In this document: in pieces, positions 1,076 through 27,485 of the stretch
Layout of the letters: the number at the start of each line of letters is the position of its first letter
How positions within the stretch are numbered: position 1 is the first letter of the stretch
Origin: Myxococcales bacterium
Lineage (GTDB): Bacteria; Myxococcota_A; Polyangia; Polyangiales; Polyangiaceae
Direction of reading: 5' to 3'
Length of the DNA: 32,000 nucleotides
Assembly: GCA_005777185.1 (NCBI GenBank)
Contig: SXNL01000208.1
Coordinates: forward strand, 1 to 32,000
Notes under the pieces: model-generated
The model's database searches: none
Told to the model about the DNA's origin: nothing
Seen by the model: the letters and a program-made list of their open reading frames with translations, nothing else
Made by a program: the position numbers and the translations under genes

Positions 1076-2350
1076 TCACCACACGCCCGGGATCGCCTTC
1101 CACGGCACCTTCTTCTTGTACGCGACATAGTCCGGATCCTGGCTCAGGTGCCGCTCCTCCGTCCACGCCCGCAGGCCGTACCACCCGCAGGTGCACGCGA
1201 GGAAGAACGCGCTCTCGGGCGTCAGGTTCGGCAGGCGCTCGAGCCACCAGGCGATGCACTTGCACACGTAGGCGGGGTGGCGGATGAAGCGGTAGGGCCC
1301 CCGGGTGATGATCCCCCGGTTCGTGAGGTTCGAGAACTTGAGCCCGAAGGAGACCGTCGCCGAGGCGTAGATCGCGAAGAGCAGCACGATGCCCGCCTTG
1401 AGCACGAGCAGCCACGTCTCGCTCCGGATGATGGCGCTTCCACCGTTGATCGGCAGGTACGTGCCGAGGACGTTGTTGAAGGGCGGGTAGCACGTGACCG
1501 CCACGAGCCACCCGAACCCCGTGGGCTCGGCGCTCCTCGTCTTGTTCCCCAGGAAGCGCGACTCGGTCATGTAACCGAGGACCGCCACGCCGCAGTCGGT
1601 GATGAACACGAGATCGTAGGCCACGTCGAGCCCCCAGCGGACGTCGAGCGCGCTCCACCGGTGGGGCGACAGGAGCGAGGCGAGATCGGAGCCGTTCGGC
1701 AGGAGGGCCGGGAGCTTCTGCGACACCGCCGCCCACCACTCCTGAACGGTCGCCGTGGCCGGGAAAAGCAAGGGTTCCAACGCCTTGCGGCGTAGCCACG
1801 CGTTCGACACGGAGTTGAGGTGGCCCGACAGGAACGACACCATGAGCGGCGTGAAGAAGAACTTCACGCCCATCGACCGCAGCGTGTTGGTGATGCGTCG
1901 GTTCTTCCAGATGTGGAGGCTTCGCCTCCGCTTCTTCGACCCCTTCGGGACGCGCGGGTCCAGCGCCGCGACGATTCCCTGCCCCAGGAGGAGCAGGTGC
2001 AGGCCGATGTCGGTGAACCATAGCCGGCGCTCCGGAAAGCGCCGCAGGGCGGCCGCCATGTAGGGGAGGCCGAGGGCGAGCCAGACGACGAACACGCCGC
2101 GGTAGACCGGCCGCCACGGCGCGAAGAGGCCTCCCTGCCAGTAGGGGTGCCGGGTGTAGATCACGAAGACGAGCGTGAGGACGAGCGAGACCGCCGCCCA
2201 ACGGGCCGCGGCCCGCGTCCAGAGGCCGAGAGGCGCCCTGCGCGCGTGCGCCTCCTGGCCCGCCGCGACGGCGCGCGCGCGAACCGGCGGCTCCTCCTTC
2301 ACGTCGTCCAAGGCGCCGGTCATTGTCGAGAAGATCGGCGGAAATGTCAC
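1076..2350 (-). CDS. Polytopic membrane protein with C-terminal isoprenylcysteine carboxyl methyltransferase (ICMT/PEMT/Ste14-like) domain
   Basis: 424-aa ORF with many hydrophobic segments. The C-terminus carries ..NRGIITRGPYRFIRHPAYVCKCIAWWLE...GLRAWTEERHLSQDPDYVAYKKKV, which is the RHPxY...EE..L signature of ICMT/phospholipid methyltransferase-family enzymes. The start is uncertain: GTG at 2350 or ATG at 2323 (MTGALDD..). Confidence 0.7.
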   Translation of the reverse strand: MTFPPIFSTMTGALDDVKEEPPVRARAVAAGQEAHARRAPLGLWTRAAARWAAVSLVLTLVFVIYTRHPYWQGGLFAPWRPVYRGVFVVWLALGLPYMAAALRRFPERRLWFTDIGLHLLLLGQGIVAALDPRVPKGSKKRRRSLHIWKNRRITNTLRSMGVKFFFTPLMVSFLSGHLNSVSNAWLRRKALEPLLFPATATVQEWWAAVSQKLPALLPNGSDLASLLSPHRWSALDVRWGLDVAYDLVFITDCGVAVLGYMTESRFLGNKTRSAEPTGFGWLVAVTCYPPFNNVLGTYLPINGGSAIIRSETWLLVLKAGIVLLFAIYASATVSFGLKFSNLTNRGIITRGPYRFIRHPAYVCKCIAWWLERLPNLTPESAFFLACTCGWYGLRAWTEERHLSQDPDYVAYKKKVPWKAIPGVW

Positions 2351-2417
2351 GCCGCCCGAAATATCGCCCGATTCTCGCTACCGCGCCGCACGTGGCTGGT
2401 ACTATCGTCGGCGGCTC

Positions 2418-4496
<2,079 letters not shown>

Positions 4497-4497
4497 G

Positions 4498-6237
4498 ATG
4501 CGCCTCCTCGCCCGCGCCGCACTCGCCTCCCTCGGCCTCGCATGCCCGAGCGCCGCGGCGAGCGGCTGCGCCCGCGACGTGCCGCCCGCGAAGGCGCCGC
4601 CCGCGCAGGAGCCCACCCACGCCGTCTTCGACCGGGTGGTCCCGTCCGTGGTGGCCGTCCTCAACGATGATCACGATCTCCGCGAGGACGAGGTCAAGCG
4701 CGCCATGAAGGCGATCGGCGTCGGCCACGCTCCGAAGACCGTCGTCGACGTCTCGCTCCGCCGCGAGCCGACGCCGCACGGCACGGGCTTCATGATCGAG
4801 GGCGGCCACATCCTCACCGCGGCGCACGTCATCCAGACGCCCGACCGGCTCAAGGTCACGACGCGCGGAGGCCGGACGGTCGAGGTCGATCTCGTCCGCA
4901 TCGACGAGGTGCGCGACGTCGCGGTGCTCGCCCCGCGGGTCCCGCTGCCCGAGGTGCCGCCCCTCGCCCTCGATCAGGGTACCGCGCGCGTCGGGCGGAA
5001 GGTGTACGCGCTCGGTCACACCGGCGGCGGCCTCTGGGCGCTGTCCTGGGGCATCACCGAGGGCGTCACGAGCGGGGTCGTCGAGCTCCTCGGGGCCGAG
5101 CTCGTGCTGCACGACGCCGCTGTGTACCCCGGGTTCTCGGGGGGTCCCGTCCTCGTCGTCGGGGACGACCATGTCGTACGCGCGATCGGCGTCAACCACG
5201 CCATCCTGTTCACCGGCGGCGCCGCGCCCATCGCGACCATCTCGAGCGCCTCGTCGGTGAAGGACATCCGCGACGTGCTCGCGGCCAAGCCCGCGCCCAT
5301 CCAGGCCAAGCTCCACGCGTATGTGAAGGAGAAGAGCGCCGAGGCGCACGCCGAGCTCTTCCTCACCAGCAACCTCTCGGTCCACCGCGATCCCGAGACG
5401 CTGACGACCGCCGCGATCATGGGCAACAACCACACGATCGCCACGTCCGACGAGGCGCGCGTCCCGGTCGTGGCGATGCTGTTCGGTGTGCAGCCCGGCC
5501 TGAAGGAGGACGTCGAGTTCAGGGTCATCGATCCGGACGACCACCCTGTCGCGAGCCTCCGGCGCACGCTCTCCGTTCCCCGGCACGAGCGCATCGGGTT
5601 CGTGAGCGCCGACCTCCGGTTCTGGGCCAAGGAGCCCGGGCGCTACGAGATCCTCGCGTTCAAGAAGGGGGTCCAGATCGGTCACACCGACGTCATCGTG
5701 AGGGATCCCGACGACGACTCGAGCCCTCTCGCCGACGAGGGCGGCGACGTGGACGGCGGCGATCCCAAGGTGAACGTCGTCGTCGCCCAGGCGGGCGTCG
5801 CGAACCCGCTCACCCTCCTCGGCATCCGCGCGGGGTGGAGCGAGTGGCGTTACCCGCGCCGCGTCGCGTTCACCTGGTTCGCCCGCGGCTCGCGCGGCTG
5901 GACGGGGCAGAACGTCGCGATCAGCTCGTTCGTGCTCGACGAGGCGGGTGTGATCGTCGGTCGCGGCGTCGGTTGCATCCGGCCGGAGCTGAGGCCCGAG
6001 ATCACCTGGAGCTGCATGGGACAGGGCGGGACGCCGCTGCTCGGCGGCGCGGGGCGCTACGACATCGTGTTCGCCATCAACGACCGGCCGGTGGCCACGT
6101 GGCCGATGGAGGCCGTGGTCCGGGTGGACGGGCAGAACAGCGCGCTCGAGCGGTGGCTCGACGAGGTGAAGAAGGGCGGCGGCGTGCGAAAGCACGATCA
6201 CGGGCAGCCCAAGGCGGCGCCCGAAAAGAGGCGGTAG
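4498..6237 (+). CDS. Secreted or lipid-anchored trypsin-like (S1/DegP-type fold) serine protease with an uncharacterised C-terminal region of about 330 aa
   Basis: The ATG lies 1 nt after the kinase TAG stop. The N-terminal signal is MRLLARAALASLGLACPSAAASGC. The catalytic triad is in the canonical order and context: HILTAAHV (His), VRDVAVL (Asp), YPGFSGGPV (Ser, about 5131-5151). No PDZ motif is recognisable in the C-terminal half. Confidence 0.85.
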   Translation: MRLLARAALASLGLACPSAAASGCARDVPPAKAPPAQEPTHAVFDRVVPSVVAVLNDDHDLREDEVKRAMKAIGVGHAPKTVVDVSLRREPTPHGTGFMIEGGHILTAAHVIQTPDRLKVTTRGGRTVEVDLVRIDEVRDVAVLAPRVPLPEVPPLALDQGTARVGRKVYALGHTGGGLWALSWGITEGVTSGVVELLGAELVLHDAAVYPGFSGGPVLVVGDDHVVRAIGVNHAILFTGGAAPIATISSASSVKDIRDVLAAKPAPIQAKLHAYVKEKSAEAHAELFLTSNLSVHRDPETLTTAAIMGNNHTIATSDEARVPVVAMLFGVQPGLKEDVEFRVIDPDDHPVASLRRTLSVPRHERIGFVSADLRFWAKEPGRYEILAFKKGVQIGHTDVIVRDPDDDSSPLADEGGDVDGGDPKVNVVVAQAGVANPLTLLGIRAGWSEWRYPRRVAFTWFARGSRGWTGQNVAISSFVLDEAGVIVGRGVGCIRPELRPEITWSCMGQGGTPLLGGAGRYDIVFAINDRPVATWPMEAVVRVDGQNSALERWLDEVKKGGGVRKHDHGQPKAAPEKRR

Positions 6238-6243
6238 GCGGAC

Positions 6244-7488
6244 GTGGCCCGGGTGCGGCGCCGCCTCGAGCTGGTCGACCAACACCGCCCGGCGTACGTC
6301 GTGTGGGAGCTGACGCTCGCGTGCGACCAGCCCTGCACCCACTGTGGCTCCCGGGCGGGCGACGCGCGACCGAGCGAGCTGTCGACGGAAGAGGCGCTCG
6401 GCGTCGTGCGCGATCTCGCCGCGCTCGGCGCCGAGGAGGTGGCGCTCATCGGTGGCGAGGCCTACCTCCACCCCGGCTTCCTCGACGTCGTGCGGGCCAT
6501 CGTGGCGGCGGGCATCCGGTGCACGATGACGACCGGCGGGCGCGGGATCGACGCGCCGCTCGCGCGATCGATCGCGGCCGCAGGTATCTACAGCGTCTCC
6601 GTCAGCGTCGACGGCCTCGAGCCCACCCACGACCTCATGCGCGCCCGGCGCGGCAGCTTCCGCGCGGCCACCGGCGCGCTCCGCCACCTGGCGGAGGCCG
6701 GCGTTGCGATCACGGCGAACACGAACTTCAACCGCCTCAACCTCGCCGAGGTCGAGGCGCTCTACGACACGCTGAGGGCGCTCGGGATCGAGAGCTGGCA
6801 GGTGCAGATCACCGCGCCGCTCGGTCGCGCGGCGGACCGGGCCGACCTCATCCTCCAGCCGTGGGATCTCCTGGAGCTCCTCCCGCGTATCGCCGCCGTC
6901 AAGCGCCGCGCGTTCGACGACGGCATCCTGGTGATGCCCGGCAACAACCTCGGGTCTTTCGGGCCCGAGGAGGCGCTCCTCCGATCGGTCACGCGCGACG
7001 GGACCGACCACTTCCAGGGGTGCCTCGCGGGGCGCTGGCTCATGGGCATCGAGTCCAGCGGCGACGTGAAGGGGTGCCCCTCGCTCCAGAGCGCGCACTA
7101 CGTGGGCGGCAACCTGCGCACGCGCCCGCTGTCCGATATCTGGCGCGACGCGCCCGAGGTGGGCTTCACGCGCGCGCGAACGGTCGACGATCTGTGGGGC
7201 TTCTGCCGCACGTGTCCGTTCGCGGAGGTGTGCATGGGCGGATGTAGCTTCACGGCCCACTCGCTGCTCGGGAAGCCGGGCAACAACCCCTACTGCCACC
7301 ACCGCGCGCGCACGCTCGCGCGCGAGGGCAGGCGTGAGCGGCTCGTTCCCGTGCGCGCGGCGCCTGGCACCCCCTTCGACAGCGCGCTCTTCGACGTCGT
7401 GATCGAGCCGATCGACGCGCCAGACCCTGCCCCGCGCCGCCCGCTCGAGCTCGTCCAGCTCCGCCGAGCGCGGCCTGATGTCAAATAA
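6244..7488 (+). CDS. Radical SAM enzyme with C-terminal SPASM domain (PqqE/MftC/anSME-like peptide or protein maturase)
   Basis: GTG start 6 nt after the protease stop. The CxxxCxxC cluster is CDQPCTHC (6322-6345), followed by a GGE-like ALIGGEAYL. The C-terminal Cys-rich SPASM signature is ..GDVKGCPSLQ...WGFCRTCPFAEVCMGGCSFTAH...NPYCHH. G/C-ending codons throughout. Confidence 0.9.
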   Translation: MARVRRRLELVDQHRPAYVVWELTLACDQPCTHCGSRAGDARPSELSTEEALGVVRDLAALGAEEVALIGGEAYLHPGFLDVVRAIVAAGIRCTMTTGGRGIDAPLARSIAAAGIYSVSVSVDGLEPTHDLMRARRGSFRAATGALRHLAEAGVAITANTNFNRLNLAEVEALYDTLRALGIESWQVQITAPLGRAADRADLILQPWDLLELLPRIAAVKRRAFDDGILVMPGNNLGSFGPEEALLRSVTRDGTDHFQGCLAGRWLMGIESSGDVKGCPSLQSAHYVGGNLRTRPLSDIWRDAPEVGFTRARTVDDLWGFCRTCPFAEVCMGGCSFTAHSLLGKPGNNPYCHHRARTLAREGRRERLVPVRAAPGTPFDSALFDVVIEPIDAPDPAPRRPLELVQLRRARPDVK

Positions 7489-7642
7489 TGAATTCAAACG
7501 ATGTAGTCATTCGCATTTCGCTCGTTCAATGACGATTGTTTGACCCGGACCCGACGCCCGCCGATCGCAAAATACCGACAAAAACGGCGCGAAATGCTCG
7601 TTTCATCGAGCGGCTCGGAGAAACCTGTGGATAACCTTGTGG

Positions 7643-7704
7643 AAAAAATATTTGTTTGCCCATGCGTTTTTTTTCTTGCGAGGCAGGGCGACCTGTTGCA
7701 TAAA
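7643..7704 (+). promoter_or_regulatory. Candidate strong sigma70-type promoter: A/T-rich UP-like tract + TTGCGA-N17-CATAAA
   Basis: TTGCGA at 7676-7681, a 17-nt spacer, and CATAAA at 7699-7704. It is preceded by an A/T-rich tract (ggaaaaaatatttgtttgcccatgcgttttttttc). Direct count gives 22/60 G+C for 7621-7680, against a flanking background that is very GC-rich. A 9-bp inverted repeat (atgcgtttt 7662-7670 / aaaacgcat 7702-7710) brackets the core promoter. The -10 lacks the terminal T, so confidence is modest. Confidence 0.35.
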
Positions 7705-7710
7705 ACGCAT

Positions 7711-10036
7711 CACGAAGTTCGCGGCACATCTCCCGCGAGCTCTCGATCGTAGAAGCCACCGGGGCGCTGCGGTCGGGGTCGGGGTTTCACGGGCAACACC
7801 CGTGGGGCACCGGACCTGACCGGTCCTTCCAGACCTGCTTGGGACGTCAATTCCAGGCGGGCGAGGAGGAAGAAAGGCGCTCGTACTCCAACCCCACCAC
7901 GGCTTGCCGCGGCGGGGCGCTTGCAAGGCCCATCTCAAGCATGTCTCGCTCTGGACAGCGAGCATGTGGGCGGCGTGAGCGGGAGGCCGACCGGGGCGGC
8001 GCGCAGGAGCGATCCTTCGTGCCCGTCCTCGTCGCTTGTGGTGGAAGGCACCTCGGTGCTCTGGAAAGCGTCGCCCTTCGCGGGGCGCCGCCGGAAGGTG
8101 CACCTCGTCTGGCCTGCTCCACGCGTCGCATCATCTCCAAGTCGCGGCGCGAGAGACCATGCCAGAGACCCGGGTGTCCGGAGACCGCCAAGGAGGGGAA
8201 CCTTCGTCGGCCATCGCCATGCGATGGCAACCTGCGTGCGTCCGACAAACCGGTCGCGCATACGGTGACGGGTCCTTCGCTTGGTCCTCCGACCTTCACG
8301 CCTTTTCGCCGGGCATTTGCCTGGCCGACCAGGCGGTGTCGCACACGTCAAGCCACCTTCCGTGCGCGTCGGCGAAAGCCGCCGGGCGGGGCAGGTGGGG
8401 AAAACGGGAGCGAGGCCGTCCGCTCGAAGGCGCGTCGCCCACACGCGCGGAGCACTCCCGAAAGGGGGTCGCACCGAGCGTCCGAGAAGAGGGTCGCGGC
8501 CCTCGTCCCGTGGGGATTCATGAGCTCGATCGGGTAATGCCCGTAAGTCGTGTGATTGCAGAAACGAACAGGCGGCATCTGGCCTCAAATAAGCCCGCGA
8601 AACGCACCTCGAAAAAGGTGGCAGGCGCGAGTGAACGGTGGCCTAGCCGGTCTCCTTTTCCCCGGGCAACCAGGGGCGAGGGCATCGGCGAAACGATGTC
8701 CGGATGCTCACTCTGCGGCGGTTCCGCCTCGGAGTTCAGCAGAGGTTCCAGGCCAGCGTGACAAGCGTTGGCTGGCGGTCGGCTCATCGAGAGGTGCGCC
8801 GGTCGCGTGCCCCGCGTATCGTCTCCCCTCTCGAGGTGGCGGCGGTTTCGACGGGAGCATGTGAAGGGTCCCTGTTCGCGGAAGGTGTCTCGGTTCGCCA
8901 CAAGGCGTCCCCTTTTCACGAGGTGGCGCTGGCGGCGGGCTTGGCCGTCTCCCTCGTTTCGAGCTGCGCAGCCCTCCCGAAGGGGGTGGCGCAGAGTGGG
9001 TCGAGCGAAGGCTCCACCCCCTTGGGACGTAGGCGGGCCGGTGACGGAGGCATCAGAGGTTCGATCGCGCTGTCGCCGTGGGAACAACACGCCCACGCCT
9101 CCTGGGTCCCGGTTCGTCCGGCCCCGCGAGGATCTACGCTCCAGCGCAATCCACCGAAGCGTTCATCGTGGCGTGAAACCACGGTCTACCTCGGGTCCTC
9201 GCAAGAGGCGGCAAGTCATGCCCCAGAGCACGGCGGGTCGACATCCCGGGAACACACGAGATGCGGGTTTTCGTCATGACATGTCTGGATGGCAGAAGTC
9301 GGTCCGTGACATCCTGGCAGGCAACGCCCTCCGCGAAAGCGATGGGAAACGCGCCTGTCTAGCCCGAAGGAAGCCTCCCCCCCAGCTGACGCAGTGGGGC
9401 GAGCGCGGAGAGAGGGCGAATCGGTGTTGCTCGGCGGCGCTCTCGAGGCAACTCGAGACACGTCGACCTCTCAGGTGAGCGATCACCTGCGAGACGAGGC
9501 ACGACGGAAGGCACTCAGGTCGCACGTACGCGCTACCCTAAAAAGTTGGCGTGTGGCGACGGCCTCTATCTCGCGGTCAACGGCCCCTCCCCCGTCCCTC
9601 ACGGGATCTGCGGAGGATCGCCCAGCGATTCGGGTCGGCTTGGAGCCGAGCTCGGACGTGCCGCGGGACGAACACGAGTGTCAGAGGGCGGAGATACCCG
9701 GGTAACGGCTCGACAACGCTCCCAAAAAGGGCGACGGCGGGTCCGGCATCCTCGGCGCTGAAAAGGCGTCGGTGAGAGGTGCGCTGCGGGTGTGGTCGTC
9801 CGAAGCTGGCGATTCGCGAATAGCGACGCTGACCCCGCTTCCTCCCTATCCGCGCGAACGGATGGGTCGAAGGGCGGCATCCAACGGTGACGAGGATGCG
9901 TGCAGGCCGGAGAGCGGCCTCACGATTGTCCGATGGCTGGCTCCAGAGGCCAGACCGAGCGCGTAAAAGCACTCCCAGCGGAAAGCAACTTCTCTCGAGG
10001 GCGACCGGGTGACCGGCTTCGCCCTCGAGCTTTTTT
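7711..10036 (+). ncRNA. Candidate large (about 2.3 kb) structured non-coding RNA of unknown class; the 5' boundary is approximate
   Basis: There is no credible CDS. ORFs of at most 241 aa occur in all six frames and overlap one another. Their translations are Arg/Ser/Gly/Pro/Trp-rich with no motifs, and many codons end in A/T, unlike the neighbouring genes. The region is bounded by the promoter-like segment upstream and a strong + strand intrinsic terminator at 9994-10036. It holds many stable hairpins, several with GNRA loops: 8370-8381 (cggc GAAA gccg), 8455-8468 (GAAA), 8980-9023 (10-bp stem), 9441-9458 (7 bp, GCAA), 9472-9489 (7 bp, GCGA), 10005-10016 (GTGA). Confidence 0.35.
9994..10036 (+). 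terminator. Rho-independent terminator (+ strand)
   Basis: ctcgagggcga (9994-10004) pairs with tcgccctcgag (10019-10029), an 11-bp stem. It is extended by an inner ccgg-GTGA-ccgg stem-loop (10005-10016) and followed by c + TTTTTT (10031-10036). The opposite strand has no comparable T-run after the stem, so orientation is +. Confidence 0.8.
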
Positions 10037-10094
10037 GTGCGTGCGTCTGGGACGTCCACGCGGCCAGCCGGCCCGGCGTCCGATCCGTCGTGGG

Positions 10095-11756
10095 CTATCT
10101 GGCCAGGACGGCGATCGCGGCGGCGAGGGCGACCACCACGCCGACCCCGATGGCGATCATCTGGTAAGGCGGCGGCGCCTTGATGGGGGTGGAGGCGTCG
10201 TCCACGGCCGGCTTGCCCTTGCGCGCGTCGCTCTTTCCGTCGGCCGCGCGGTCGCTCTCGGCCCTCCGGCTCGGCTCCGCCCTCCGGCTCGGCTCCGCCT
10301 TGCGGGGCGGCTCCGTCTTGCGCGGCGGCTCCGCCTTGGCCGGCTCCGACCTGCCGGGCTTGGTGCTGGCGGGGGGGGGCGTGTCGCCGTCGTCGCCCGG
10401 GTCGTCCGTCTCCCCCTGGTCGGTCTTTCGGGGAGGCGGCCGGGTGGGGGCCTTCTTCTGGTCGGCCTCGGCCTTCTTCTCCTCGACGCGCCTGGCCTTC
10501 TGGCGCTGCTTGGCAAGCTCGCGCTTCTTCCGGCGGCGCTCGGCCTTGTCGTGGTCCTTCTTCTTGCGCGCGGCGTCGCGCTCCTCGCGGGACTTGTGCT
10601 GCGGGCGCTCGCTGGGGTCGGGGGGGAGGGAGCGCGTCTCCCGTCCACTGTCCGCCGACGGTCGTCCGCTGTCTGCCGACGGTCGTCCGCTGTCCGGCGT
10701 CGCCGGTCCACCATCCACCGTCCGCTGCCCGCGCGCAGATCCGGATTTCGGGAGCTCGGGCTTGGCCTCGGCCTTGGGCGGGGCGACCTTCGGGGGCTCG
10801 ACCTTCGGGGGCTCGACCTTCGGGGGCTCGACCTTCGGGGGCTCGGCCTTCGGGGGCTCGGCCTTCGGGGGCTCGGCCTTCGGGGGCTCGGCCTTCGGGG
10901 CCTCGACCTTCGGGGGCTCGGCCTTCGGGGGCTCGGCCTTCGGGGGCTCGGCCTTCGGGGCCTCGACCTTCGGCGGCTCGAACCGGGGCCGGTCGACCCT
11001 GGCCCCGGCCGACTGCAGAGGTTCGGCCTTCGGAGGTTCGGCCCTGAGGAGGGTTGACGGCCTCGGCGGTTCGGGCTTGGCGGGCTGGAATCTGGGCAAG
11101 CTCGGCGGCTTCGGGGGCTCGGCCTTGGCGACCGCCGGCGGCTTCGGGGGCTCGGCCTTGGCGACCGCCGGCGGCTTCGGGGGCTCGGCCTTGGCGACCG
11201 CCGACGGCTTCGGGGGCTCGGCCTTGGCGACCGCCGGCGGCATCGGCGGTTCAGCCGCTCTGGCCCTCGGCAAGCTCGTCGGCTTCGAAGGCTTTTGCGG
11301 AGGCGCCAGGGGAAAGGCGGCCTCTACGCGAGCAGACGAGGGTGAGGGCGGCCTCGGAGCAGGGGGGCTGGGCGACGGTGCCGAGGGCTCGGTGGACGTC
11401 GGCGGCTGCCGCAGGGGGCGGGCCTCGGTGGCGGGCGTCGGTGGCGACGGCGGGAGCGGGAGCTGGAGCTGGGACGCCTTCGCGACCTGCGCGGGAGGCG
11501 CGATCTTCGCGATCCAGGCCTCCGGCTTGACGGAGACCCACCCGACGTCCCTCGCCGGCTCGGCCGCGAGCGGTGCGGCCTCTCGCTGCTTCGACTCGTC
11601 CTTCGTGGGGATCGTCGTCGGCTCGACGGCGAGCGGTGCCGCTTCCGGCTCCTTCGACTCGTCCTTGGTGGTGATCGTCGGGAGATCCCAGTCCTCCTCG
11701 AGCGCGTCGAGCAACGCGCGGTCGCCGTCGGGCGGATCTTTCCCGGAGGGATCCAT
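10095..11756 (-). CDS. Tail-anchored proline-rich repeat protein (PEVK-like (A/V)E(P/A)PK pentapeptide arrays, charged coiled segment, single C-terminal TM helix)
   Basis: 553-aa ORF with G/C-ending codons (unit GCC GAG CCC CCG AAG). The N-terminus is acidic and has no signal peptide (MDPSGKDPPDGDRALLDALEEDWD..). Repeats include AKAEPPKPPAV x4 and (A/V)E(P/A)PK x about 14. A K/R/E-rich stretch follows (..REERDAARKKKDHDKAERRRKKRELAKQRQKARRVEEKKAEADQKK..). The C-terminus is hydrophobic (YQMIAIGVGVVVALAAAIAVLAR). The overlapping + strand ORFs (9900-11057, 10180-12384) translate to implausible low-complexity products. Confidence 0.75.
   Translation of the reverse strand: MDPSGKDPPDGDRALLDALEEDWDLPTITTKDESKEPEAAPLAVEPTTIPTKDESKQREAAPLAAEPARDVGWVSVKPEAWIAKIAPPAQVAKASQLQLPLPPSPPTPATEARPLRQPPTSTEPSAPSPSPPAPRPPSPSSARVEAAFPLAPPQKPSKPTSLPRARAAEPPMPPAVAKAEPPKPSAVAKAEPPKPPAVAKAEPPKPPAVAKAEPPKPPSLPRFQPAKPEPPRPSTLLRAEPPKAEPLQSAGARVDRPRFEPPKVEAPKAEPPKAEPPKAEPPKVEAPKAEPPKAEPPKAEPPKAEPPKVEPPKVEPPKVEPPKVAPPKAEAKPELPKSGSARGQRTVDGGPATPDSGRPSADSGRPSADSGRETRSLPPDPSERPQHKSREERDAARKKKDHDKAERRRKKRELAKQRQKARRVEEKKAEADQKKAPTRPPPRKTDQGETDDPGDDGDTPPPASTKPGRSEPAKAEPPRKTEPPRKAEPSRRAEPSRRAESDRAADGKSDARKGKPAVDDASTPIKAPPPYQMIAIGVGVVVALAAAIAVLAR
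10269..10340. repeat. 18-bp tandem repeat x4 (codes AEPSRR/TEPPRK hexapeptides on minus strand)
   Basis: The units are ctcggctccgccctccgg / ctcggctccgccttgcgg / ggcggctccgtcttgcgc / ggcggctccgccttggcc, read directly from the sequence. Confidence 0.8.
10648..10710. repeat. 21-bp tandem repeat x3 (codes DSGRPSA heptapeptides on minus strand)
   Basis: The units are ctgtccgccgacggtcgtccg / ctgtctgccgacggtcgtccg / ctgtccggcgtcgccggtcca (the last is degenerate). Confidence 0.75.
10767..10980. repeat. 15-bp tandem repeat, about 14 units (codes (A/V)E(P/A)PK pentapeptides on minus strand)
   Basis: The unit is g(a/g)ccttcggggg(c)ctc, repeated head-to-tail across 10767-10980. Only a/g and g/c variants occur, which switch A<->V and P<->A. 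Confidence 0.9.
11104..11235. repeat. 33-bp tandem repeat x4 (codes AKAEPPKPPAV 11-mers on minus strand)
   Basis: The unit ggcggcttcgggggctcggccttggcgaccgcc occurs at 11104, 11137 and 11170 (one substitution), with a degenerate fourth copy from 11203. Confidence 0.85.
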
Positions 11757-11764
11757 TCAGGCGG

Positions 11765-11793
11765 ACCATAGGAAATTACGTGAAAAATCGCAA
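11765..11793 (-). promoter_or_regulatory. Candidate sigma70-type promoter (TTGCGA-N17-TATGGT) placed for a leaderless or very short-leader transcript of the repeat-protein gene
   Basis: Reverse complement of 11788-11793 is TTGCGA, followed by a 17-nt A/T-rich spacer, and the reverse complement of 11765-11770 is TATGGT. Only 8 nt separate the -10 from the ATG at 11756, and there is no Shine-Dalgarno sequence. Confidence 0.45.
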
Positions 11794-11807
11794 CTTCGCA
11801 CGACGTC

Positions 11808-12662
11808 CTACCGATCCGGCCCGCAGCGAGCACGCGCGAGGAGGGCGTGGCAGAACAGCGCGAGCGCCGGCGGATGCTGCGCGAAGAACAGCGAGGGCTC
11901 GACCAGCTCGAGCTCCATGAGGACCAGGGATCCGTCGCTCTCCCGCGCGAGGTCCACGCGCGCGTACAGCGGCGGAGCGGGCTGGGTGGCGAGCACCCTG
12001 TGGGCCAGCGCACGCTCGTCCTCGGCGATCGGCATCACGGACACGGACTCCTCCTGGCCGGTGAAGCGCGGGCTCTTCCGGACCGCGTGCGTCGGCGTTC
12101 CCTCGATGCAGACGATCGCGCGCTCGCCCTCGCCGTCGACCGAGGCGACGTACGGCTGGACCATGACGTCCCGTTCGCGCGCGTGCACCGCGAGCTCGCC
12201 CCCCACGAGATCCGCGACCCGGTACGCGTGCGTCTCGAACGAACCCGCCGACACCCGCGGCTTGACGACGACCCTCGACCATCCGCGCCGCTGCACGATC
12301 TCGCGAAGCTCGGCCTCCGATCCGCGGGGGACGTGCTCCGTGGGCACGACGGGGATGCCTCGCTGCTCGAGCTCGCGGAGGTAAGCCTTGTCCGAGTTCC
12401 AGCGCACCGTGGCCGGGTCCGCGAACAGCCGCGTCCTCCGCGAGGTTCGCTCCGCCCAGGCCACGAAGCCCTCCCGGTCCAGGTGGTAGTTCCACGTGGA
12501 CCGCAGCACGGCGACGTCGAATCGCGTGTAGTCTACATGAACATCGTCCCACGCGACGACCTCCGGCTCGGTCCCCCGCGCGCGCAGCGCGGCGACCAGG
12601 AGGGGCTCGTCCAGGTCGGGCTCGGGGAGGACGACGCAGCTGACGATCGCGATCCGGAGCAT
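11808..12662 (-). CDS. ATP-grasp fold ligase (RimK/YheC-D-like), 284 aa
   Basis: Start at ATG 12662 (MLRIAIVSCVVLPEPD..). The longer track ORF (to 13190) would overlap the divergent metalloprotease gene. ATP-grasp motifs present: RVVVKPRVSAGSFETH, DVMVQPYVASV, GERAIVCIEG, and YARVDLARESDGSLVLMELELVEPSLFF. Confidence 0.8.
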   Translation of the reverse strand: MLRIAIVSCVVLPEPDLDEPLLVAALRARGTEPEVVAWDDVHVDYTRFDVAVLRSTWNYHLDREGFVAWAERTSRRTRLFADPATVRWNSDKAYLRELEQRGIPVVPTEHVPRGSEAELREIVQRRGWSRVVVKPRVSAGSFETHAYRVADLVGGELAVHARERDVMVQPYVASVDGEGERAIVCIEGTPTHAVRKSPRFTGQEESVSVMPIAEDERALAHRVLATQPAPPLYARVDLARESDGSLVLMELELVEPSLFFAQHPPALALFCHALLARARCGPDR

Positions 12663-12682
12663 CCAGCGATGGGTACCGTGCC

Positions 12683-12711
12683 TCGCCAACCGCGCGTTTC
12701 GCAAGTATAAT
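12683..12711 (+). promoter_or_regulatory. Candidate sigma70-type promoter (TCGCCA-N17-TATAAT) for the metalloprotease operon
   Basis: A perfect TATAAT lies at 12706-12711, and TCGCCA (4/6 match to TTGACA) lies at 12683-12688 with a 17-nt spacer. The -10 ends 9 nt before the TTG start at 12721, and no Shine-Dalgarno sequence is present. Confidence 0.45.
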
Positions 12712-12720
12712 CCCACCTGC

Positions 12721-13692
12721 TTGTCTTCGCGTCCTCGCCACCCGGGCCTCCTCGCCGCCGCGCTCGCGCTCGCGCTGGCCTTCGCCGCGGGCAACGCCGA
12801 CGCCTTCTGCCGGTCCGTCACGTGCCGCAGCACGGAGTCGAAGCCCTGCGCGACGGACGCGAACGGCTGCGGGACGAGCGGCCACAAGCTCTTCTGGAAG
12901 ACCTCGTGCATCCAGTTCAACCTCCACAAGGCCGGCACGCAGCAGGTGGCCATCGAGCTGGCCCGCAAGGCCGTGACGAGGTCGTTCCAGGCCTGGAGCG
13001 CCGTCGACTGCGGCGGCGGCAAGCAGGCCACCATGACGTTCTCCCCCGGCGAGGACGTGAGCTGCAGGGTCAGCCAGTACAACAGCAAGGCGCCGAACGT
13101 GAACGTGATCTTCTTCCAGGACGACAACTGGAAGTACCGGGGCGTGGACGGCACGCTCGCCAAGACGAGCGTCACGTACAACGACGACACGGGAGAGATC
13201 TACGACGCCGACATCGAGGTCAACAGCGCGAACAACCTCGTCACCGTCACGGACGACGCCGCGGCGACCAAGTACGATCTCCAGGCGATCCTCACCCACG
13301 AGGTCGGCCACTTCATCGGGATCGCGCACACGCAGGACGCGTCGGCGACGATGTTCCCCAGCTATTCGCCTGGATCCGTCACCCAGCGCGTGCTCGCGCC
13401 CGACGACAAGAAGGCGGTCTGCGCGGCGTACCCGCCCGATCGCGTCGCGACGTGCGATCCCACACCGCGCGGCGGCTTCTCGGGGACCTGCACGGAAACG
13501 GGCGGCGCTGGCTCGTCCTCGTCGTCCTCTTCTTCCGGCTGCGCGGTCGCGCCCGAAGCCGAGGCGAGCCGGGACGCGTCCGGAGGTACGACCATCCCGT
13601 TCGTGCTCGGGGCGCTCGGGCTCGGTTGGCTCGTCCGCCCGCGATCCAGGAAGCGTGAGCCCGCCTCGACTGCAAGGGAGACCGTCCGATGA
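12721..13692 (+). CDS. Secreted matrixin-like (M10 metzincin) zinc metalloprotease with MYXO-CTERM-like C-terminal tail
   Basis: Signal peptide GLLAAALALALAFAAGNADA. Zinc site HEVGHFIGIAH (HExxHxxGxxH) plus a Met-turn, ATMFPSY. The C-terminus is a poly-Ser run, then GC, then a spacer, a hydrophobic helix (IPFVLGALGLGWLV) and a basic tail (RPRSRKRE), which resembles the MYXO-CTERM tripartite sorting tail. The TTG start at 12721 is the only in-frame start upstream of the signal peptide. Confidence 0.85.
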   Translation: MSSRPRHPGLLAAALALALAFAAGNADAFCRSVTCRSTESKPCATDANGCGTSGHKLFWKTSCIQFNLHKAGTQQVAIELARKAVTRSFQAWSAVDCGGGKQATMTFSPGEDVSCRVSQYNSKAPNVNVIFFQDDNWKYRGVDGTLAKTSVTYNDDTGEIYDADIEVNSANNLVTVTDDAAATKYDLQAILTHEVGHFIGIAHTQDASATMFPSYSPGSVTQRVLAPDDKKAVCAAYPPDRVATCDPTPRGGFSGTCTETGGAGSSSSSSSSGCAVAPEAEASRDASGGTTIPFVLGALGLGWLVRPRSRKREPASTARETVR

Positions 13693-25236: not shown

Positions 25237-26007
25237 TCAGCCGCCGTCGGTCGGCGGGCCGCAGAGGTAGTTGATCGTCTTGGGGAAGCTCGACGCGAAG
25301 TCGGTGCCGCGGCAGACCGCGTCGGCCGCCGCCTTGCCGGCGGTGAGCGCGTCCGTGCACGCCTTCTCCTGCACGAAGTCCTTGCACGCGTCGGCGGCGG
25401 AGGTCTTCTGGCACTCCGCGAGGGACGCCTGGTCCTCGCACGCTCCGCAGGTCTCACCCTGACAGAGCAGCGAGTTCGACGCCTTGACCGTGCACTGCGG
25501 CTGCTTCAGCACGAGGTAGCTGCAGAGGTTGATGTTGAGGAACGTCCACTTGTCCGTCAGCACCAGGCCGGGGAGGTTCAGGTTGAGGCCACCGTCGCCG
25601 TAGTTCCCGCCGACCATGCAGCTCATGCAGTTCTTGTTGGCGGCGTTGTCCGAGTACGCCTTGCACTTCGTGGCGTCGGCCGTCTTGTCGATGCAGTCGG
25701 CGAAGAAGCCCGTGACCTGGGCGGGGGTGCAGACGTTCTGCCCCGCGGCGCCGGTGGTCGCCTTGTAGGACGCGGCCTGCGTCGGGTCGTAGCAGGTGTT
25801 GGGACCCGAATCGACGTTGCTCGGGCCGGTGTCGGCCGCCGTCGTCTTCGCGTCGACCTTGCTACCGCCCGAGTCCGTCACGGTCGTGGTCGTTCCCGCG
25901 TCCGTGTCGGTCACGGTGACCGTGCTGCTGCAACCCGCAAACGCTGTGACACCGGCGAGGCCGCCGAGGCCGATCACCGAGACGAATCCAATCAACTTCT
26001 TCAGCAT
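25237..26007 (-). CDS. Cys-rich lipoprotein
   Basis: ATG 26007 with an AAGGAGG 8 nt upstream. MLKKLIGFVSVIGLGGLAGVTAFAGCSS is the lipobox region. A Thr/Asp-rich linker is followed by a Cys-rich globular part (..CYDPTQ..CTPAQVTGFFADCIDKTADATKCKAY..CMSCM..CQGETCGACEDQASLAECQK..). Confidence 0.8.
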   Translation of the reverse strand: MLKKLIGFVSVIGLGGLAGVTAFAGCSSTVTVTDTDAGTTTTVTDSGGSKVDAKTTAADTGPSNVDSGPNTCYDPTQAASYKATTGAAGQNVCTPAQVTGFFADCIDKTADATKCKAYSDNAANKNCMSCMVGGNYGDGGLNLNLPGLVLTDKWTFLNINLCSYLVLKQPQCTVKASNSLLCQGETCGACEDQASLAECQKTSAADACKDFVQEKACTDALTAGKAAADAVCRGTDFASSFPKTINYLCGPPTDGG

Positions 26008-26072
26008 GATCCTGGCCTCCTTGGACGAAACGACTGCCGATCTCCCGAACGGCAACAACGAAAAGCGCGCGC

Positions 26073-26101
26073 ACCGTAGCTTTCCACTCGTTCTCCGTCA
26101 A
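26073..26101 (-). promoter_or_regulatory. Candidate sigma70-type promoter (TTGACG-N17-TACGGT) for the lipoprotein operon
   Basis: Reverse complement of 26096-26101 is TTGACG, followed by a 17-nt spacer, and the reverse complement of 26073-26078 is TACGGT. It lies about 65 nt upstream of ATG 26007. Confidence 0.35.
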
Positions 26102-26176
26102 TCGCAATTCACCGACCGCGACGACGGAGAGCCCTCAACCCTGCGCTTGCACGCACGCGCACGGCGGGAGCCCTCG

Positions 26177-26200
26177 ATCCTGAATCCTGAATCCTGAATC
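26177..26200. repeat. 7-bp microsatellite (atcctga) x3.4 in a 455-bp intergenic region
   Basis: atcctga atcctga atcctga atc, read directly from the sequence. Confidence 0.9.
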
Positions 26201-26462
26201 TCTGCTGCCCCTCCGACAGGCCTGTCATGGCGACGGGCGCGGGGTGCGCATTTCCTAACGGCGGCCCCCTCCTTTTCGCCCTCGAAAACGTGTCCTGAGA
26301 GCGAACCTGGAGGAAAATTGCCGCTGGATCGTAGCGGCGAGCCTCGAACTGTGACTTCCTGGTGACTGCACCCCCGGCAAGAAGGTTAGGAAAGGGAGCC
26401 GCGAGCGCGGCCCGTTTGTATTGACATCTTTCCCAAGCAACCGCCATGCCCGCAGGCGATCT

Positions 26463-27485
26463 TCATCCCGGAGCAGGACCCAGCGCCCGGAGCGCCTCGC
26501 TCGCGACGTCAGTGTCGGTTCCCCCGAGCAGGGCCTCGAGGTGCGCCCGCGCCTCGGCTACCCGCGCCCGCCCTACGCCCACGATGGCCGCGCGACGCTG
26601 CTCCGCGTCACGAGAGGAGAGGCCCGCGAGGAGGGTGCGCCTGCCCTTCTCGTGGCCCAGCGCGGCAAGCGCGATCGTCGCCGAGAACGAGCAGGTCTCC
26701 CGGACGAGACGACCGAGGCCGAAGGCGCGGCGCTCGAGCGCCGGGATCGCCTCGGCGAGGCCCAGGATCCCCACGAGCTCGACCGCCGCCTGCTCCTCTT
26801 CCCGCCCGGGAGGCGATCCCGGCCACGCGCGATGGACGGCACGGAGGAGGACGGGGTGCGCCTCGGCCCGGCCGCGCTTCGCCGCGAGGATCGCCGCCGC
26901 GAGCGAGACATCCGGGTTGTCGTCACGGATGAGCGCACAAGCGCGCTCGACGAGCGCATCGGAGGGTGCCGTGCCCTCGTCGTGGCGCTGCTCGGCGGAG
27001 CGGAGGGCGATGTGCACGACGGCGCGGTCGTCGTCGGAGAGCGCGCGGAGGAGGGCGCGATCGTTCGCCTCCGCGTCGGAGGACACCCGGGTGAACGCGA
27101 TGACCGCCTGGTAGCGGACGTCCGGTCGGGGATCCCTGAGCGCGTGCTCGAGCCGCGGTAGCGCGCGCGGGTCCGCGAGCTCCCCGAGCGCCGAGATCGC
27201 CATCTGCCGCACGAGCCCGTCGTCGTCGGAGCTCAGGAGGAGGAGCCTGGGCACCGCCTCGGTGACACCCAGATCGGCCACCGCGACCGCAGCGGCGGCG
27301 CGCACGTCCGAGGAGGCGTCGGCGAGGAGGGGAGGCACCGCGAGCGCGGCGCGGGCGTGGAGATCGGGCCCGGTCCGGGCGTGGCGCACCACGTCGCCGA
27401 TGGCCGCAGCGCGCACGTCCGGGCGTTCGGACGCGAGATCGCGGAAGCTGGCCTCGATGTTCCTCGGCAGCGGCGGGAAGAGCAC
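26463..27485 (-). CDS. HEAT-repeat (PBS-lyase/EZ-HEAT type) protein
   Basis: The 340-aa ORF has a GTG start. It shows recurrent ..D.D..VR..A..AL(G/A)..(G/A)...A.P.L...L.D modules (e.g. SDVRAAAAVAVADLGVTEAVPRLLLLSSDDDGLVRQMAISALGELADPRALPRLEHALRDPRPDVRYQAV). Confidence 0.8.
   Translation of the reverse strand: MLFPPLPRNIEASFRDLASERPDVRAAAIGDVVRHARTGPDLHARAALAVPPLLADASSDVRAAAAVAVADLGVTEAVPRLLLLSSDDDGLVRQMAISALGELADPRALPRLEHALRDPRPDVRYQAVIAFTRVSSDAEANDRALLRALSDDDRAVVHIALRSAEQRHDEGTAPSDALVERACALIRDDNPDVSLAAAILAAKRGRAEAHPVLLRAVHRAWPGSPPGREEEQAAVELVGILGLAEAIPALERRAFGLGRLVRETCSFSATIALAALGHEKGRRTLLAGLSSRDAEQRRAAIVGVGRARVAEARAHLEALLGGTDTDVASEALRALGPAPG

Follow-up and report, generated by a model that had tools for sequence, protein, structure and literature searches.

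Large structured RNAs of bacteria other than rRNA (OLE, GOLLD, ROOL, RNase P, tmRNA, group II introns) are mostly shorter than 1 kb, and each new class of large RNA has so far led to new biology. OLE RNA (Rfam RF01071) comprises about 610 nt and is known from Bacillota. GOLLD (about 800 nt) and ROOL (about 580 nt) are 'ornate' large RNAs identified in environmental sequence and frequently occur together with phages or tRNA clusters. For OLE, no biochemical function is established, and it scaffolds a ribonucleoprotein (RNP) complex (PMC12265935, PMC7936274), while GOLLD and ROOL form RNA-only homo-oligomeric cages (PMC12286853).

Here, we study a 32-kb stretch of DNA (32,000 nt, in the following 'the window') whose host is an uncultured Polyangia-like myxobacterium. 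We conclude, with a probability of roughly 0.9, that positions 7710-10036 of its + strand are a single-copy chromosomal gene (no whole-genome copy count available) whose product, a non-coding RNA, has a length of about 2.33 kb and belongs to a previously undescribed family. Like OLE, this RNA is large, intricately folded and apparently independently expressed, with long invariant stretches between covarying helices. However, it shows no sequence or structure match to OLE, is about four times longer, lacks an adjacent oapA-like partner gene and occurs not in Bacillota but in soil-type samples and a Polyangia-like myxobacterium. With GOLLD and ROOL it shares many GNRA-capped helices, and their cages are a possible model for protein-free action (we have no oligomerisation data). 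In contrast to both, it has no Rfam match, is about 3-4 times longer and lies among housekeeping genes, without a match in phage, plasmid and viral collections.

Similarities to rRNA, RNase P, tmRNA, SRP and 6S RNA concern the apparently stand-alone gene with a strong-looking promoter after an A/T-rich tract and with a terminator. To rRNA and other stable RNAs it is furthermore similar in its multi-domain fold, its lineage-specific expansion hairpins and its apparent abundance in total-RNA data; in size (2.3 kb) it ranges between 16S and 23S rRNA. Unlike these RNAs, it matches none of their models even at E up to 5, is, as far as seen, narrow in phylogenetic range and single-copy (one match in the window; genome-wide copy number not covered). 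Group II introns and large ribozymes are comparable in scale (intron including its ORF), multi-domain architecture and GNRA loops, but there is no domain V/VI match in Rfam, no reverse-transcriptase ORF in any frame and, with complete convergent genes on both sides of the island, no host gene that is interrupted.

Infernal searches with Rfam 15 gave nothing at gathering thresholds for the window, nor at E up to 1 for 7300-10300, and for three homologues searched at E up to 5 only chance-level matches of 12-16 bits were found. That is, neither OLE, GOLLD, ROOL, HEARO and raiA nor other Rfam 15 families reached their gathering threshold. An initial annotation of the locus, made from the sequence alone, had suggested a cmscan run and had itself recognized no rRNA, RNase P, tmRNA, SRP, 6S or group II hallmarks, with which this outcome agrees. 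ARAGORN reported no tRNA or tmRNA, and the sole rRNA match is a chimeric eukaryotic LSU fragment of one homologous contig (L097), outside the RNA. A literature search found no description of such an RNA or its core sequence, and no mention of the sample identifiers.

The gene-free island and its signals

The island (7489-10094) is bounded by the stop codons of two convergent genes, i.e., a radical SAM/SPASM (rSAM) gene and a repeat-protein gene (Table 1), such that neither neighbour needs a promoter within it. According to a GC frame plot of the 32-kb window, it is the sole stretch of more than 1 kb without codon periodicity: the codon-position GC bias is absent from about 7490 to 10090 (maximum minus minimum GC per phase at most 0.16), while the GC3 of the flanking genes is about 0.93-0.97 on both sides. 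The flat plot between strongly periodic neighbours supports the initial claim that 7489-10094 holds no credible CDS. As a small correction, the RNA itself covers about 7710-10036 of the island, while the A/T-rich part 7489-7709 is promoter and spacer and lies outside the RNA.

Synteny of the rSAM gene and the RNA is retained in L081, a relative that is 86% identical, and in L113-L116; the same organism was assembled from DNA four times independently, each time with an identical RNA and matching synteny. The cluster member P0241 led only to DNA contigs of the same organism and left the diversity unchanged. In 80 more distant myxobacterial rSAM loci (at most 72% protein identity), the synteny is lost, and neither the RNA nor a similar gene-free gap is present at any of these loci, which were found via the rSAM neighbour. 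The RNA is thus not functionally tied to the rSAM gene. Of the convergent genes, one encodes a Pro/Ala/Lys repeat membrane protein and another an ATP-grasp-like protein, neither of which suggests a link to RNA biology, and no neighbourhood gene points to a partner protein or pathway.

Table 1. Features of the RNA locus (window positions)
Feature	Position	Strand	Evidence or remark
Radical SAM/SPASM gene, upstream neighbour	6244-7488	+	Pfam match
Spacer and promoter region, A/T-rich, outside the RNA	7489-7709	+	lowest G+C of the window
TGTGGATAA and TGTGGAAAA, a direct-repeat pair 12 bp apart, located about 64-84 nt ahead of the start	7626-7646	+	both kept in L081
A/T tract (AAAAAATATTTGTTTG...T8) abutting the -35 box on its upstream side	7651-7675	+	T8 run kept in L081
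Sigma-70-type promoter: -35 TTGCGA (7676-7681), 17-nt spacer, -10 CATAAA (7699-7704)	7676-7704	+	three-lineage footprint
RNA gene, non-coding, highly structured, about 2,327 nt	7710-10036	+	abrupt conservation onset, covariation, no coding signal
5'-terminal hairpin P1: AGUUCGCGG, loop CACAUCUC, CCGCGAGCU	7716-7741	+	
5' domains, nested multi-helix, closed by covarying long-range helices	7755-8514	+	compensatory pairs
Central domain	8539-9268	+	long-range helices 8539-8554/9253-9268 and 8565-8580/8865-8878 (RNAalifold predictions)
Invariant core: three-tier hairpin GGCCUCAAAUAAGCCCGCGAAACGCACCUCGAAAAAGGUGGCAGGCGCGAGUGAACGGUGGCC with A-rich internal loops, 63 nt	8581-8643	+	
Variable expansion arm after the core	8646-8689	+	GCAA-capped hairpin in most lineages
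3' domain	9283-9885	+	covarying helices, invariant blocks, GNRA loops
Intrinsic terminator: 11-bp stem, 4-bp inner stem, GUGA loop, U6 tail	9994-10036	+	folding
Pro/Ala/Lys/Glu-repeat protein with C-terminal membrane anchor, convergent downstream neighbour	10095-11756	-	without Pfam match

With regard to base composition, the earlier count of 22/60 G+C for 7621-7680 was reproduced, and all 60-mers of the whole window with at most 24 G+C start at 7471-7628, such that this is indeed its only strongly A/T-rich stretch. The promoter candidate TTGCGA-N17-CATAAA, already proposed there, is present, and both L081 and a further lineage, L124, have the promoter as well. In the footprint of all three, TTGCG and TGTTGCATAAA are invariant, while the spacer is variable in sequence and fixed in length and the 5-nt discriminator is variable; a conserved TGTTG precedes the -10 box. 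A generic promoter scanner did not report the promoter at 7676-7704.

Further upstream, window and L081 share only about 65-70% identity over the spacer (7489-7620), while discrete blocks stay conserved. Both direct repeats are conserved although the surrounding spacer diverged, and TTATCCACA with at most one mismatch has just these two matches in 32 kb. The first repeat equals the perfect DnaA-box consensus on the - strand, the second is a one-mismatch box. We consider the pair a candidate activator binding site, a function that is inferred only. The adjoining A/T tract resembles a UP element of the kind present in stable-RNA promoters; no more than resemblance is implied.

At the other end, the terminator folds with -32 kcal/mol (z = -4.5), and 0/200 shuffles are as stable. 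The 11-bp stem with T6 tail that had been noted at 9994-10036 is thereby substantiated, while a simple terminator scanner missed it because of an internal bulge.

The boundaries are also reflected in contigs that contain only the RNA. Their 5' ends correspond to window positions 7717-7723, i.e., 7-13 nt past the predicted start, and their 3' ends to about 9987-10011, at or within the 5' strand and loop of the terminator. In many samples, none is longer than about 2.3 kb except for chimeric extensions, and every listed cluster member is on a contig of at most 2,316 nt. L097 is fused to eukaryotic 28S (LSU) rRNA, P0249 to a sequence like the GroEL C-terminus, i.e., a groEL message (identified by eye only), and in L122 an Illumina adapter at the start runs straight into the equivalent of position 7723. 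Given these ends and fusions, the short contigs are most likely assembled transcripts, an assignment that rests on boundaries, chimeras and adapter without library metadata. From the full-length assembly in many samples and the chimeras with rRNA and groEL we infer that the RNA is abundant and stable. The offset of 7-13 nt means that a processed 5' end cannot be excluded. Overall, promoter footprint, strong terminator and bounded contigs suggest, without TSS, Term-seq or Northern data, a discrete transcript with start and stop signals of its own. The transcript range from about 7710 to about 10036 estimated initially is in line with the contig ends, which is indirect evidence, with no direct mapping of either end.

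Conservation without coding signal

We found 23 related sequences in public assemblies, namely five DNA contigs, which are from the same organism or include flanking or promoter DNA, and about 18 short RNA-only contigs. Full-length homologues, including L084, L090, L123 and L118, are present in at least seven clades with 57-94% identity, and those with 57-85% identity still align end to end; conserved relatives, for which the initial annotation had suggested a search, thus exist. The onset of conservation is abrupt at 7710/7711. Compared to L081, identity is about 94-95% over the initial 160 nt of the RNA, about 85% in the rSAM coding sequence and about 65-70% in the spacer, i.e., the 5' end of the RNA is more conserved than the adjoining real coding gene. 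Judged from these alignments, the RNA is under selection, and its conservation in several lineages exceeds the neutral level. An 18-mer scan of metagenome contigs produced 31 loci, 24 of which were discarded as unrelated coding matches (GGFYDR-type motif on the opposite strand), including the 28-nt matches of L094, L096 and L111.

The island does not encode a protein. Variable columns are evenly distributed over the codon phases (153/167/156), i.e., without 3-base periodicity, and 91 of 122 internal gap runs have a length of 1 nt. Translations of the 'same' ORF are only patchily identical (38%) where the DNA is 85% identical. Pfam has no match for the ten longest stop-free translations of the island, and no ORF is meaningfully conserved across the seven clades; only one 32-aa ORF (+) and one 22-aa ORF (-) stay open in homologues, both in near-identical sequence. 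An exhaustive HMMER search with one frame yielded 16 spurious-ORF relatives, which are short unnamed ORFs on homologous contigs of at most 2.3 kb. The search of a shorter six-frame ORF concatenate against a word-indexed protein database was empty; this result is unreliable, with the word filter swamped by low-complexity candidates.

Fold, covariation and domains

To assess covariation, we used MAFFT alignments, RNAalifold and our own shuffling controls rather than R-scape, and individual long-range helices may be wrong. Only full-length rows entered the consensus folds, since with partial rows included gap penalties remove the 3' half of the fold. For nine close sequences, 50 of 783 predicted pairs are compensatory compared to 12-23 in column-shuffled alignments subjected to the same pipeline, and the consensus energy is -1009 compared to -838 to -873 kcal/mol. 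Within the 5' half, 96.4% of the cells are paired, and 26 pairs changed on both sides versus 12.5 +/- 2.3 in shuffles (0/500 reach 26) and just 3-5 when partners are slid. The signal is stronger in twelve sequences from seven clades: here, 259/734 pairs are compensatory (86-112 when shuffled, 74-90 when slid), 90.7% are canonical (about 42% when slid) and the energy is -799 versus -554 to -587 in the controls. At least two compensatory pairs each are found in 39 helices spread from 7755 to 9924. As far as comparative folding can tell, the structure is conserved, with compensatory changes far above the controls, and the covariation check suggested at the outset has a positive outcome.

The fold of the + strand (-1009 kcal/mol) is more stable than that of the - strand (-848 kcal/mol), more changes retain pairing via G-U on +, and the terminator orientation also indicates the + strand. 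The folding z-score is -6.1 for segment 7710-8700 and only modest (-2.2) for the second 991-nt segment. Neither internal domain duplications nor tandem repeats were found in the RNA. Ten hairpins carry a GNRA loop in every homologue, four of which vary within GNRA, and hairpin expansions are self-complementary. All hairpins listed in the initial annotation are located where it had placed them; those at 8455-8468, 9441-9458 and 9472-9489 are kept in homologues with loop variation within GNRA only. Its overall reading, a large structured non-coding RNA, holds, given that the RNA is non-coding, conserved, covarying and without known family.

Concerning the individual domains, P1 is part of a 73-nt block that is identical in window and L081, and the RNA-only contigs begin inside its 5' strand. 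The predicted closing helices of the 5' domains (7755-7762/8035-8042, 8047-8053/8172-8178, 8179-8208/8267-8291, 8297-8305/8427-8434 and 8438-8442/8510-8514) show 2-8 compensatory pairs each and 91-100% canonical cells. Those of the central domain have 14 pairs each, of which 2 and 7 are compensatory, respectively, with 96% canonical.

The core within the central domain is essentially identical in all clades despite an overall identity down to 57-60%. Exceptions are G/A at 8611 as well as the unpaired positions 8599 and 8630, which switch jointly (C with A, or U with U). A covarying helix (GC to AU in 3/8 sequences) closes the core, which is followed by the expansion arm and is a candidate for the functional centre. 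The arm is replaced by longer, different hairpins in L118 and L119 and shows compensatory changes in 7/13 and 3/5 pairs. For the 3' domain, the helices 9283-9291/9878-9885, 9298-9307/9494-9505, 9518-9536/9545-9564, 9569-9577/9660-9668 and 9686-9703/9783-9801 are predicted. Its invariant blocks are 9746-9784 and 9800-9824, and the GNRA loops at 9447-9452 and 9478-9483 vary as GCAA/GAAA/GUAA and GCGA/GAGA/GAAA, respectively.

Alternative explanations and possible role

Located directly after the rSAM operon on the same strand, with no strong terminator found at 7488-7700, the island might be a very long UTR or cis-regulatory RNA of a neighbour or, given the 32-aa ORF open in three close homologues, an mRNA for small protein(s). 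We consider this very improbable: a conserved promoter precedes the conserved block, the RNA-only contigs never reach the upstream gene, the RNA is missing from 80 other rSAM loci, and the downstream gene is convergent, which leaves nothing to regulate in cis. The survival of the 32-aa ORF is uninformative because its block is at least 97% identical. Hardly any weight remains for a decayed protein-coding gene, or for one of foreign origin whose codon usage is unusual. Long ORFs in all six frames, with up to 277 codons, and the fact that some frames stay open in several homologues can be cited for such an origin, but neither composition nor substitutions show codon periodicity, frameshifting 1-nt indels dominate, translations diverge far more than the DNA, Pfam has no match and the HMMER search found only the short unnamed ORFs. 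In addition, conservation of the island exceeds that of the real gene next to it, and substitutions in helices are compensatory. A test against a decayed gene, part of the initial annotation, is therefore passed by the RNA reading, with no Pfam match, even substitutions over phases and prevailing 1-nt indels.

One and the same pair of end positions recurs in many contigs, a pattern that repeat boundaries can also cause in DNA assemblies, such that a multicopy DNA element (non-autonomous mobile element, prophage remnant or genomic repeat) could break assemblies at 2.3 kb. This is slightly less plausible still than a UTR or mRNA, considering the unique flanks and conserved synteny in five DNA assemblies, the absence of terminal inverted or direct repeats and of a transposase or integrase nearby, and the lack of matches in phage, plasmid and viral collections. 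Furthermore, the boundaries coincide with promoter and terminator, the 28S rRNA and groEL chimeras and the 5' adapter fusion point to RNA libraries, and a repeat leaves the covariation unexplained. As negligible as the decayed gene is a DNA-level element, e.g., a replication origin, for which the perfect and the one-mismatch DnaA box, 12 bp apart in the window's only A/T-rich DNA and both kept in L081, might be invoked. The boxes number only two, as many as 9/100 shuffles yield by chance, and they sit in the promoter region of the RNA. No dnaA, dnaN or gyrB is nearby and no replication gene is in the 32 kb, the GC-skew of 5000-13000 has no inversion at the island, and 2.3 kb of strand-specific structural covariation would remain unexplained.

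For the non-coding RNA gene, the above results show non-coding nature, conservation, covariation and strand as well as, from conservation and contig ends, the boundaries, and they lead to the following model. Transcription would start from its own sigma-70-type promoter, with the UP-element-like A/T tract and the TGTGGA repeat pair upstream, and would end at the strong intrinsic terminator (9994-10036). The transcript is predicted to fold into several nested multi-helix domains with many GNRA caps and some lineage-specific expansion hairpins. Selection acts on this fold as well as on several blocks that are invariant and mostly unpaired, most clearly the 63-nt A-rich hairpin 8581-8643. The RNA could then serve as a stable architectural or catalytic RNA, i.e., as RNP scaffold or RNA-only assembly, with the invariant hairpin as binding or active site.

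By analogy to the known large RNAs, and by inference only, a role as stable scaffold or catalytic RNA is most likely, while a base-pairing regulator or cis-regulatory element is unlikely. If the RNA is functional, our rough split puts an RNP scaffold in front, at a little below even odds; a self-assembling RNA-only particle is a distinctly weaker option, on a par with all other roles together, and a ribozyme is slightly weaker again. We lean, by a small degree, towards the wider claim that the RNA founds a new class of very large structured RNA (about 2.3 kb), is the largest non-ribosomal one of bacteria and abundant in soil myxobacteria, and either works as a ribozyme or forms the core of a large RNP or RNA-only particle around the invariant 63-nt A-rich hairpin. 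It would be the largest structured bacterial RNA known, rRNA aside.

Direct tests can now draw on precise boundary predictions, an alignment of several clades and a candidate for the functional centre. Gene-free islands in GC-rich genomes and unassigned metatranscriptome contigs of about 2 kb can conceal major RNA genes, which escape both protein-centred annotation and Rfam. If confirmed, the finding would widen the size range of functional bacterial RNAs and provide cryo-EM and ribozyme searches with a new target. It would mean that a developmentally complex, predatory group of bacteria expresses, from a gene of its own, a conserved 2.3-kb RNA with rRNA-like architecture, i.e., with nested domains, expansion segments, GNRA caps and an invariant core.

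Island boundaries and genomic context

The protein-gene-free stretch 7489-10094 (the island) is real and distinct from the rest of the window. The genome has a G+C content of about 71%, and GC frame plots show third-position values (GC3) of 0.93-0.97 in both neighbours of the island. This third-position bias is entirely absent from about 7490 to 10090. Elsewhere in the window, it is lost over no stretch of more than about 0.7 kb. The initial annotation had described an A/T-rich stretch, a promoter candidate, a list of hairpins and a terminator. Recounting reproduced the composition of the A/T-rich stretch, promoter and terminator are present, and each hairpin was found at its coordinates (see the table).

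Features of the island and its surroundings (window coordinates)
Feature	Position	Strand	Remarks
Radical SAM/SPASM (rSAM) gene	6244-7488	+	stop codon bounds the island on the left
A/T-rich stretch	7621-7680		22/60 G+C
DnaA-box pair	7626-7646		boxes 12 bp apart, ~64-84 nt upstream of the RNA start
Promoter candidate	7676-7704		TTGCGA-N17-CATAAA
Invariant core hairpin	8581-8643	+	63 nt, three tiers
Further invariant block	9746-9784	+
Further invariant block	9800-9824	+
Terminator	9994-10036	+	fold -32 kcal/mol, z = -4.5
Repeat-rich membrane-anchored protein gene	10095-11756	-	convergent; stop codon bounds the island on the right
Second stretch without codon periodicity	25950-26700		intergenic, ~0.6-0.7 kb, G+C 0.63, no Rfam match

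The locus is ordinary chromosome. The neighbouring genes encode a Ser/Thr kinase, a trypsin-like peptidase, rSAM/SPASM, DUF4215 proteins, Obg, an FlhB-family export protein, PspA, lipoamide dehydrogenase, an E1 dehydrogenase and ABC permeases; given such ordinary chromosomal neighbours, we rejected a mobile element. No hint of a partner protein was found among the neighbouring genes. The best non-self relatives of Obg are at most 74% identical (Polyangiaceae MAGs; Labilithrix 66%), which places the host in a deep, uncultured Polyangia-like lineage.

Some observations concern the neighbours themselves. Kinase, peptidase and rSAM/SPASM genes follow each other in this order (2175-7488). Homologous rSAM loci number more than 580 across Myxococcota and two cyanobacteria (Nostoc, Mojavia), often with a kinase homologue nearby, and the set may be a conserved peptide-modification cluster. 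The protein encoded to the right of the island is Pro/Ala/Lys/Glu-rich with a C-terminal membrane anchor; it is made up of tandem repeats at 10257-11680, among them units of 15 nt (13 copies) and 33 nt (4.4 copies). Compared with L113, a 99%-identical assembly, the window differs only within the repeats at 10801-11223, save for one mismatch at 6956, a pattern that points to rapidly changing repeat numbers or to collapse of the repeats during assembly. Finally, antisense 'shadow' ORFs opposite real genes can be very long (e.g., 1,082 codons at 4249-7497, - strand) and give tblastn matches in relatives because the true opposite-strand genes are conserved. Annotation that relies on ORFs could be led astray by them in this GC-rich genome.

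Homologues and coding tests

Relatives of the rSAM gene number in the hundreds in myxobacteria, all with at most 72% identity, and the island was present at none of the 80 distant rSAM loci that were fetched. L081, a 1.85-kb JGI contig, carries an 86% identical rSAM gene and, beyond the stop codon of that gene, part of the island. Here, the spacer is about 65-70% identical to the window with the promoter blocks kept, and from 7710/7711 on the identity is about 94-95%, including 73 identical bases, compared to about 85% for the coding gene. Scanning JGI metagenome contigs with an 18-mer taken from this conserved block identified seven true homologues (L082, L084, L090, L097, L100, L108, L112) of 81-85% identity and up to full-length coverage; the other 24 loci were discarded as unrelated coding matches. 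Furthermore, the spurious ORF 7979-8758 was translated and searched exhaustively with HMMER against 1.84 billion representative proteins. The resulting 16 unnamed 'proteins' come from spurious ORFs annotated on additional homologues, whose contigs (L117-L124) widen the family down to about 57-64% identity. A word-indexed protein search with island translations returned nothing, yet HMMER with one such frame found these relatives, i.e., a negative from a word filter is unreliable for low-complexity, GC-rich pseudo-proteins. The G+C content of the homologues is 61-66%. The same organism is also represented by four DNA assemblies (L113-L116; identity 99.2-99.99%), in which the synteny is kept and the RNA does not differ. 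On their island, the gene caller annotated nothing beyond one spurious 190-aa ORF in L116 and, in L113 and L114, a 52-aa ORF that covers the terminator.

The initial annotation had proposed a large structured non-coding RNA of no recognised family, to be checked against Rfam and against relatives, and had left a decayed gene to be excluded. The proposal withstood these checks. Rfam 15 gave no match at gathering thresholds for the whole window, none for the island at E up to 1, and only chance-level matches for three homologues at E up to 5; ARAGORN found neither tRNA nor tmRNA. The relatives' copies are non-coding and kept down to about 57% identity. With regard to a gene remnant, Pfam gave no match at E up to 0.1 for any of the ten longest stop-free translations, and variable columns among close homologues are spread evenly over the codon phases (153/167/156). 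Single-base runs make up 91 of the 122 internal gap runs, position-overlapping ORFs of different homologues sit in shifting frames, and ORF translations are only patchily similar (38% identity at 85% DNA identity). One 32-aa ORF (+) and one 22-aa ORF (-) remain open in the homologues; their persistence is uninformative since both lie within near-identical sequence. A gene remnant was thus rejected based on the missing Pfam match, even phases, 1-nt indels and diverging translations: the RNA is non-coding.

Base pairing and the invariant core

For nine close sequences, RNAalifold predicts a fold of 783 pairs (-1009 kcal/mol), in which 50 pairs show compensatory double changes. Alignments with shuffled columns, put through the same pipeline, show 12-23 such pairs and -838 to -873 kcal/mol, and slid partners 6-11 pairs. 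When counting pairs within the 5' half, 96.4% of the cells are paired and 26 pairs are changed on both sides, a number reached by none of 500 shuffles (12.5 +/- 2.3; slid partners 3-5). Extending the alignment to twelve sequences from seven clades yields 259 compensatory pairs out of 734, in contrast to 86-112 for shuffled and 74-90 for slid controls. Canonical cells amount to 90.7% (slid about 42%) and the consensus energy to -799 kcal/mol (controls -554 to -587). When at least 4 pairs, at least 2 of them compensatory, are required together with a canonical share of at least 88% of the cells, 39 helices across 7755-9924 pass, some of them long-range and closing nested domains. The + strand is favoured over its reverse complement (-1009 vs. 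-848 kcal/mol), with more changes kept via G-U pairs and fewer broken pairs.

Among the 45 predicted hairpins, ten carry GNRA loops in every homologue that has them, and four vary within GNRA only (e.g., GCAA/GAAA/GUAA at 9447-9452). Some lineages swap several hairpins for longer self-complementary ones, similar to expansion segments. The core hairpin with its A-rich internal loops is the same in all clades at 57-60% overall identity; its only differences are G/A at 8611 and a joint change of the unpaired positions 8599 and 8630. A covarying helix closes this hairpin, and a highly variable arm comes after it. As binding or active sites, the core and the further invariant blocks are the strongest candidates. 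Taken together, we show that the ~2.33-kb gene encodes a conserved, strand-specific, non-coding and extensively base-paired RNA, whose boundaries are defined by sequence signals and, indirectly, by contig ends.

Inferred transcript ends, proposed role and novelty

Upstream DNA is available for three sequences, namely the window, L081 and the homologue contig L124. They have in common TTGCG as -35 element, a spacer of 17 nt whose sequence varies, and TGTTGCATAAA; the 5-nt discriminator is variable and invariance starts at TCACGAAG (7710). Given this footprint and the onset of invariance, the RNA start is predicted from sequence at about 7710-7712. Upstream of the promoter, L081 also keeps the T8/A-rich tract and both TGTGGA(T/A)AA repeats; by inference only, the tract would serve as an UP element and the repeats would bind an activator. 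The DnaA-box pair, which L081 likewise keeps, consists of the perfect consensus TGTGGATAA and a one-mismatch copy, and could reflect DnaA control of the RNA or another protein recognising direct repeats.

Contigs of all cluster members are at most 2,316 nt long. The 5' ends of RNA-only contigs coincide at window-equivalent positions 7717 (L084, L112), 7720 (L123), 7722 (L090, L082, L118) and 7723 (L100, L108, L122), and their 3' ends reach the terminator or stop within its 5' half or loop (L118 ~9987; L090, L119 9999; L123 10004; L084 10011), which argues against random DNA fragmentation. Run-off cDNA is typically short by about 10 nt at the RNA 5' end. We therefore take the short contigs to be transcripts assembled from an abundant RNA, on the strength of their ends and of the artefacts described next rather than of a documented library type, and infer that the RNA is highly abundant and stable. 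Three kinds of artefacts were seen on homologues: the 5' end of L097 (1025-1260) is 236 nt of eukaryotic LSU (28S) rRNA, P0249, an ORF on a homologue contig, joins the RNA to a sequence resembling the GroEL C-terminus (identified by eye only), and L122:1-22 is the Illumina adapter CAGACGTGTGCTCTTCCGATCT directly abutting GGCACAUC... They are useful evidence for an origin from RNA libraries, and likewise a warning on chimeras in public metatranscriptome assemblies. L100 leaves the other homologues at the equivalent of ~9963; its 3' end in RNA orientation (L100:1-235) is ~235 nt of unrelated sequence without Rfam match, carrying AAAGGAGGTGATC and then GTG. Either this contig is an assembly chimera, or the RNA of its lineage ends differently.

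Regarding function, a cis-regulatory role is less likely because the next gene is convergent, and so is a regulator acting antisense or by base pairing, since conservation and structure span all 2.3 kb. Large ornate bacterial ncRNAs are known as a kind, but the present RNA is without detectable relation to any member and three to four times larger. No description was found in the literature, including by core sequence, with subscription-only literature outside the search; within this scope, we rate the RNA a new class of large bacterial ncRNA. By analogy to OLE, GOLLD and ROOL (PMC12265935, PMC12286853), its proposed role would be architectural or catalytic, either as the scaffold of an RNP or as a particle made of RNA alone, with the invariant hairpin at its centre.
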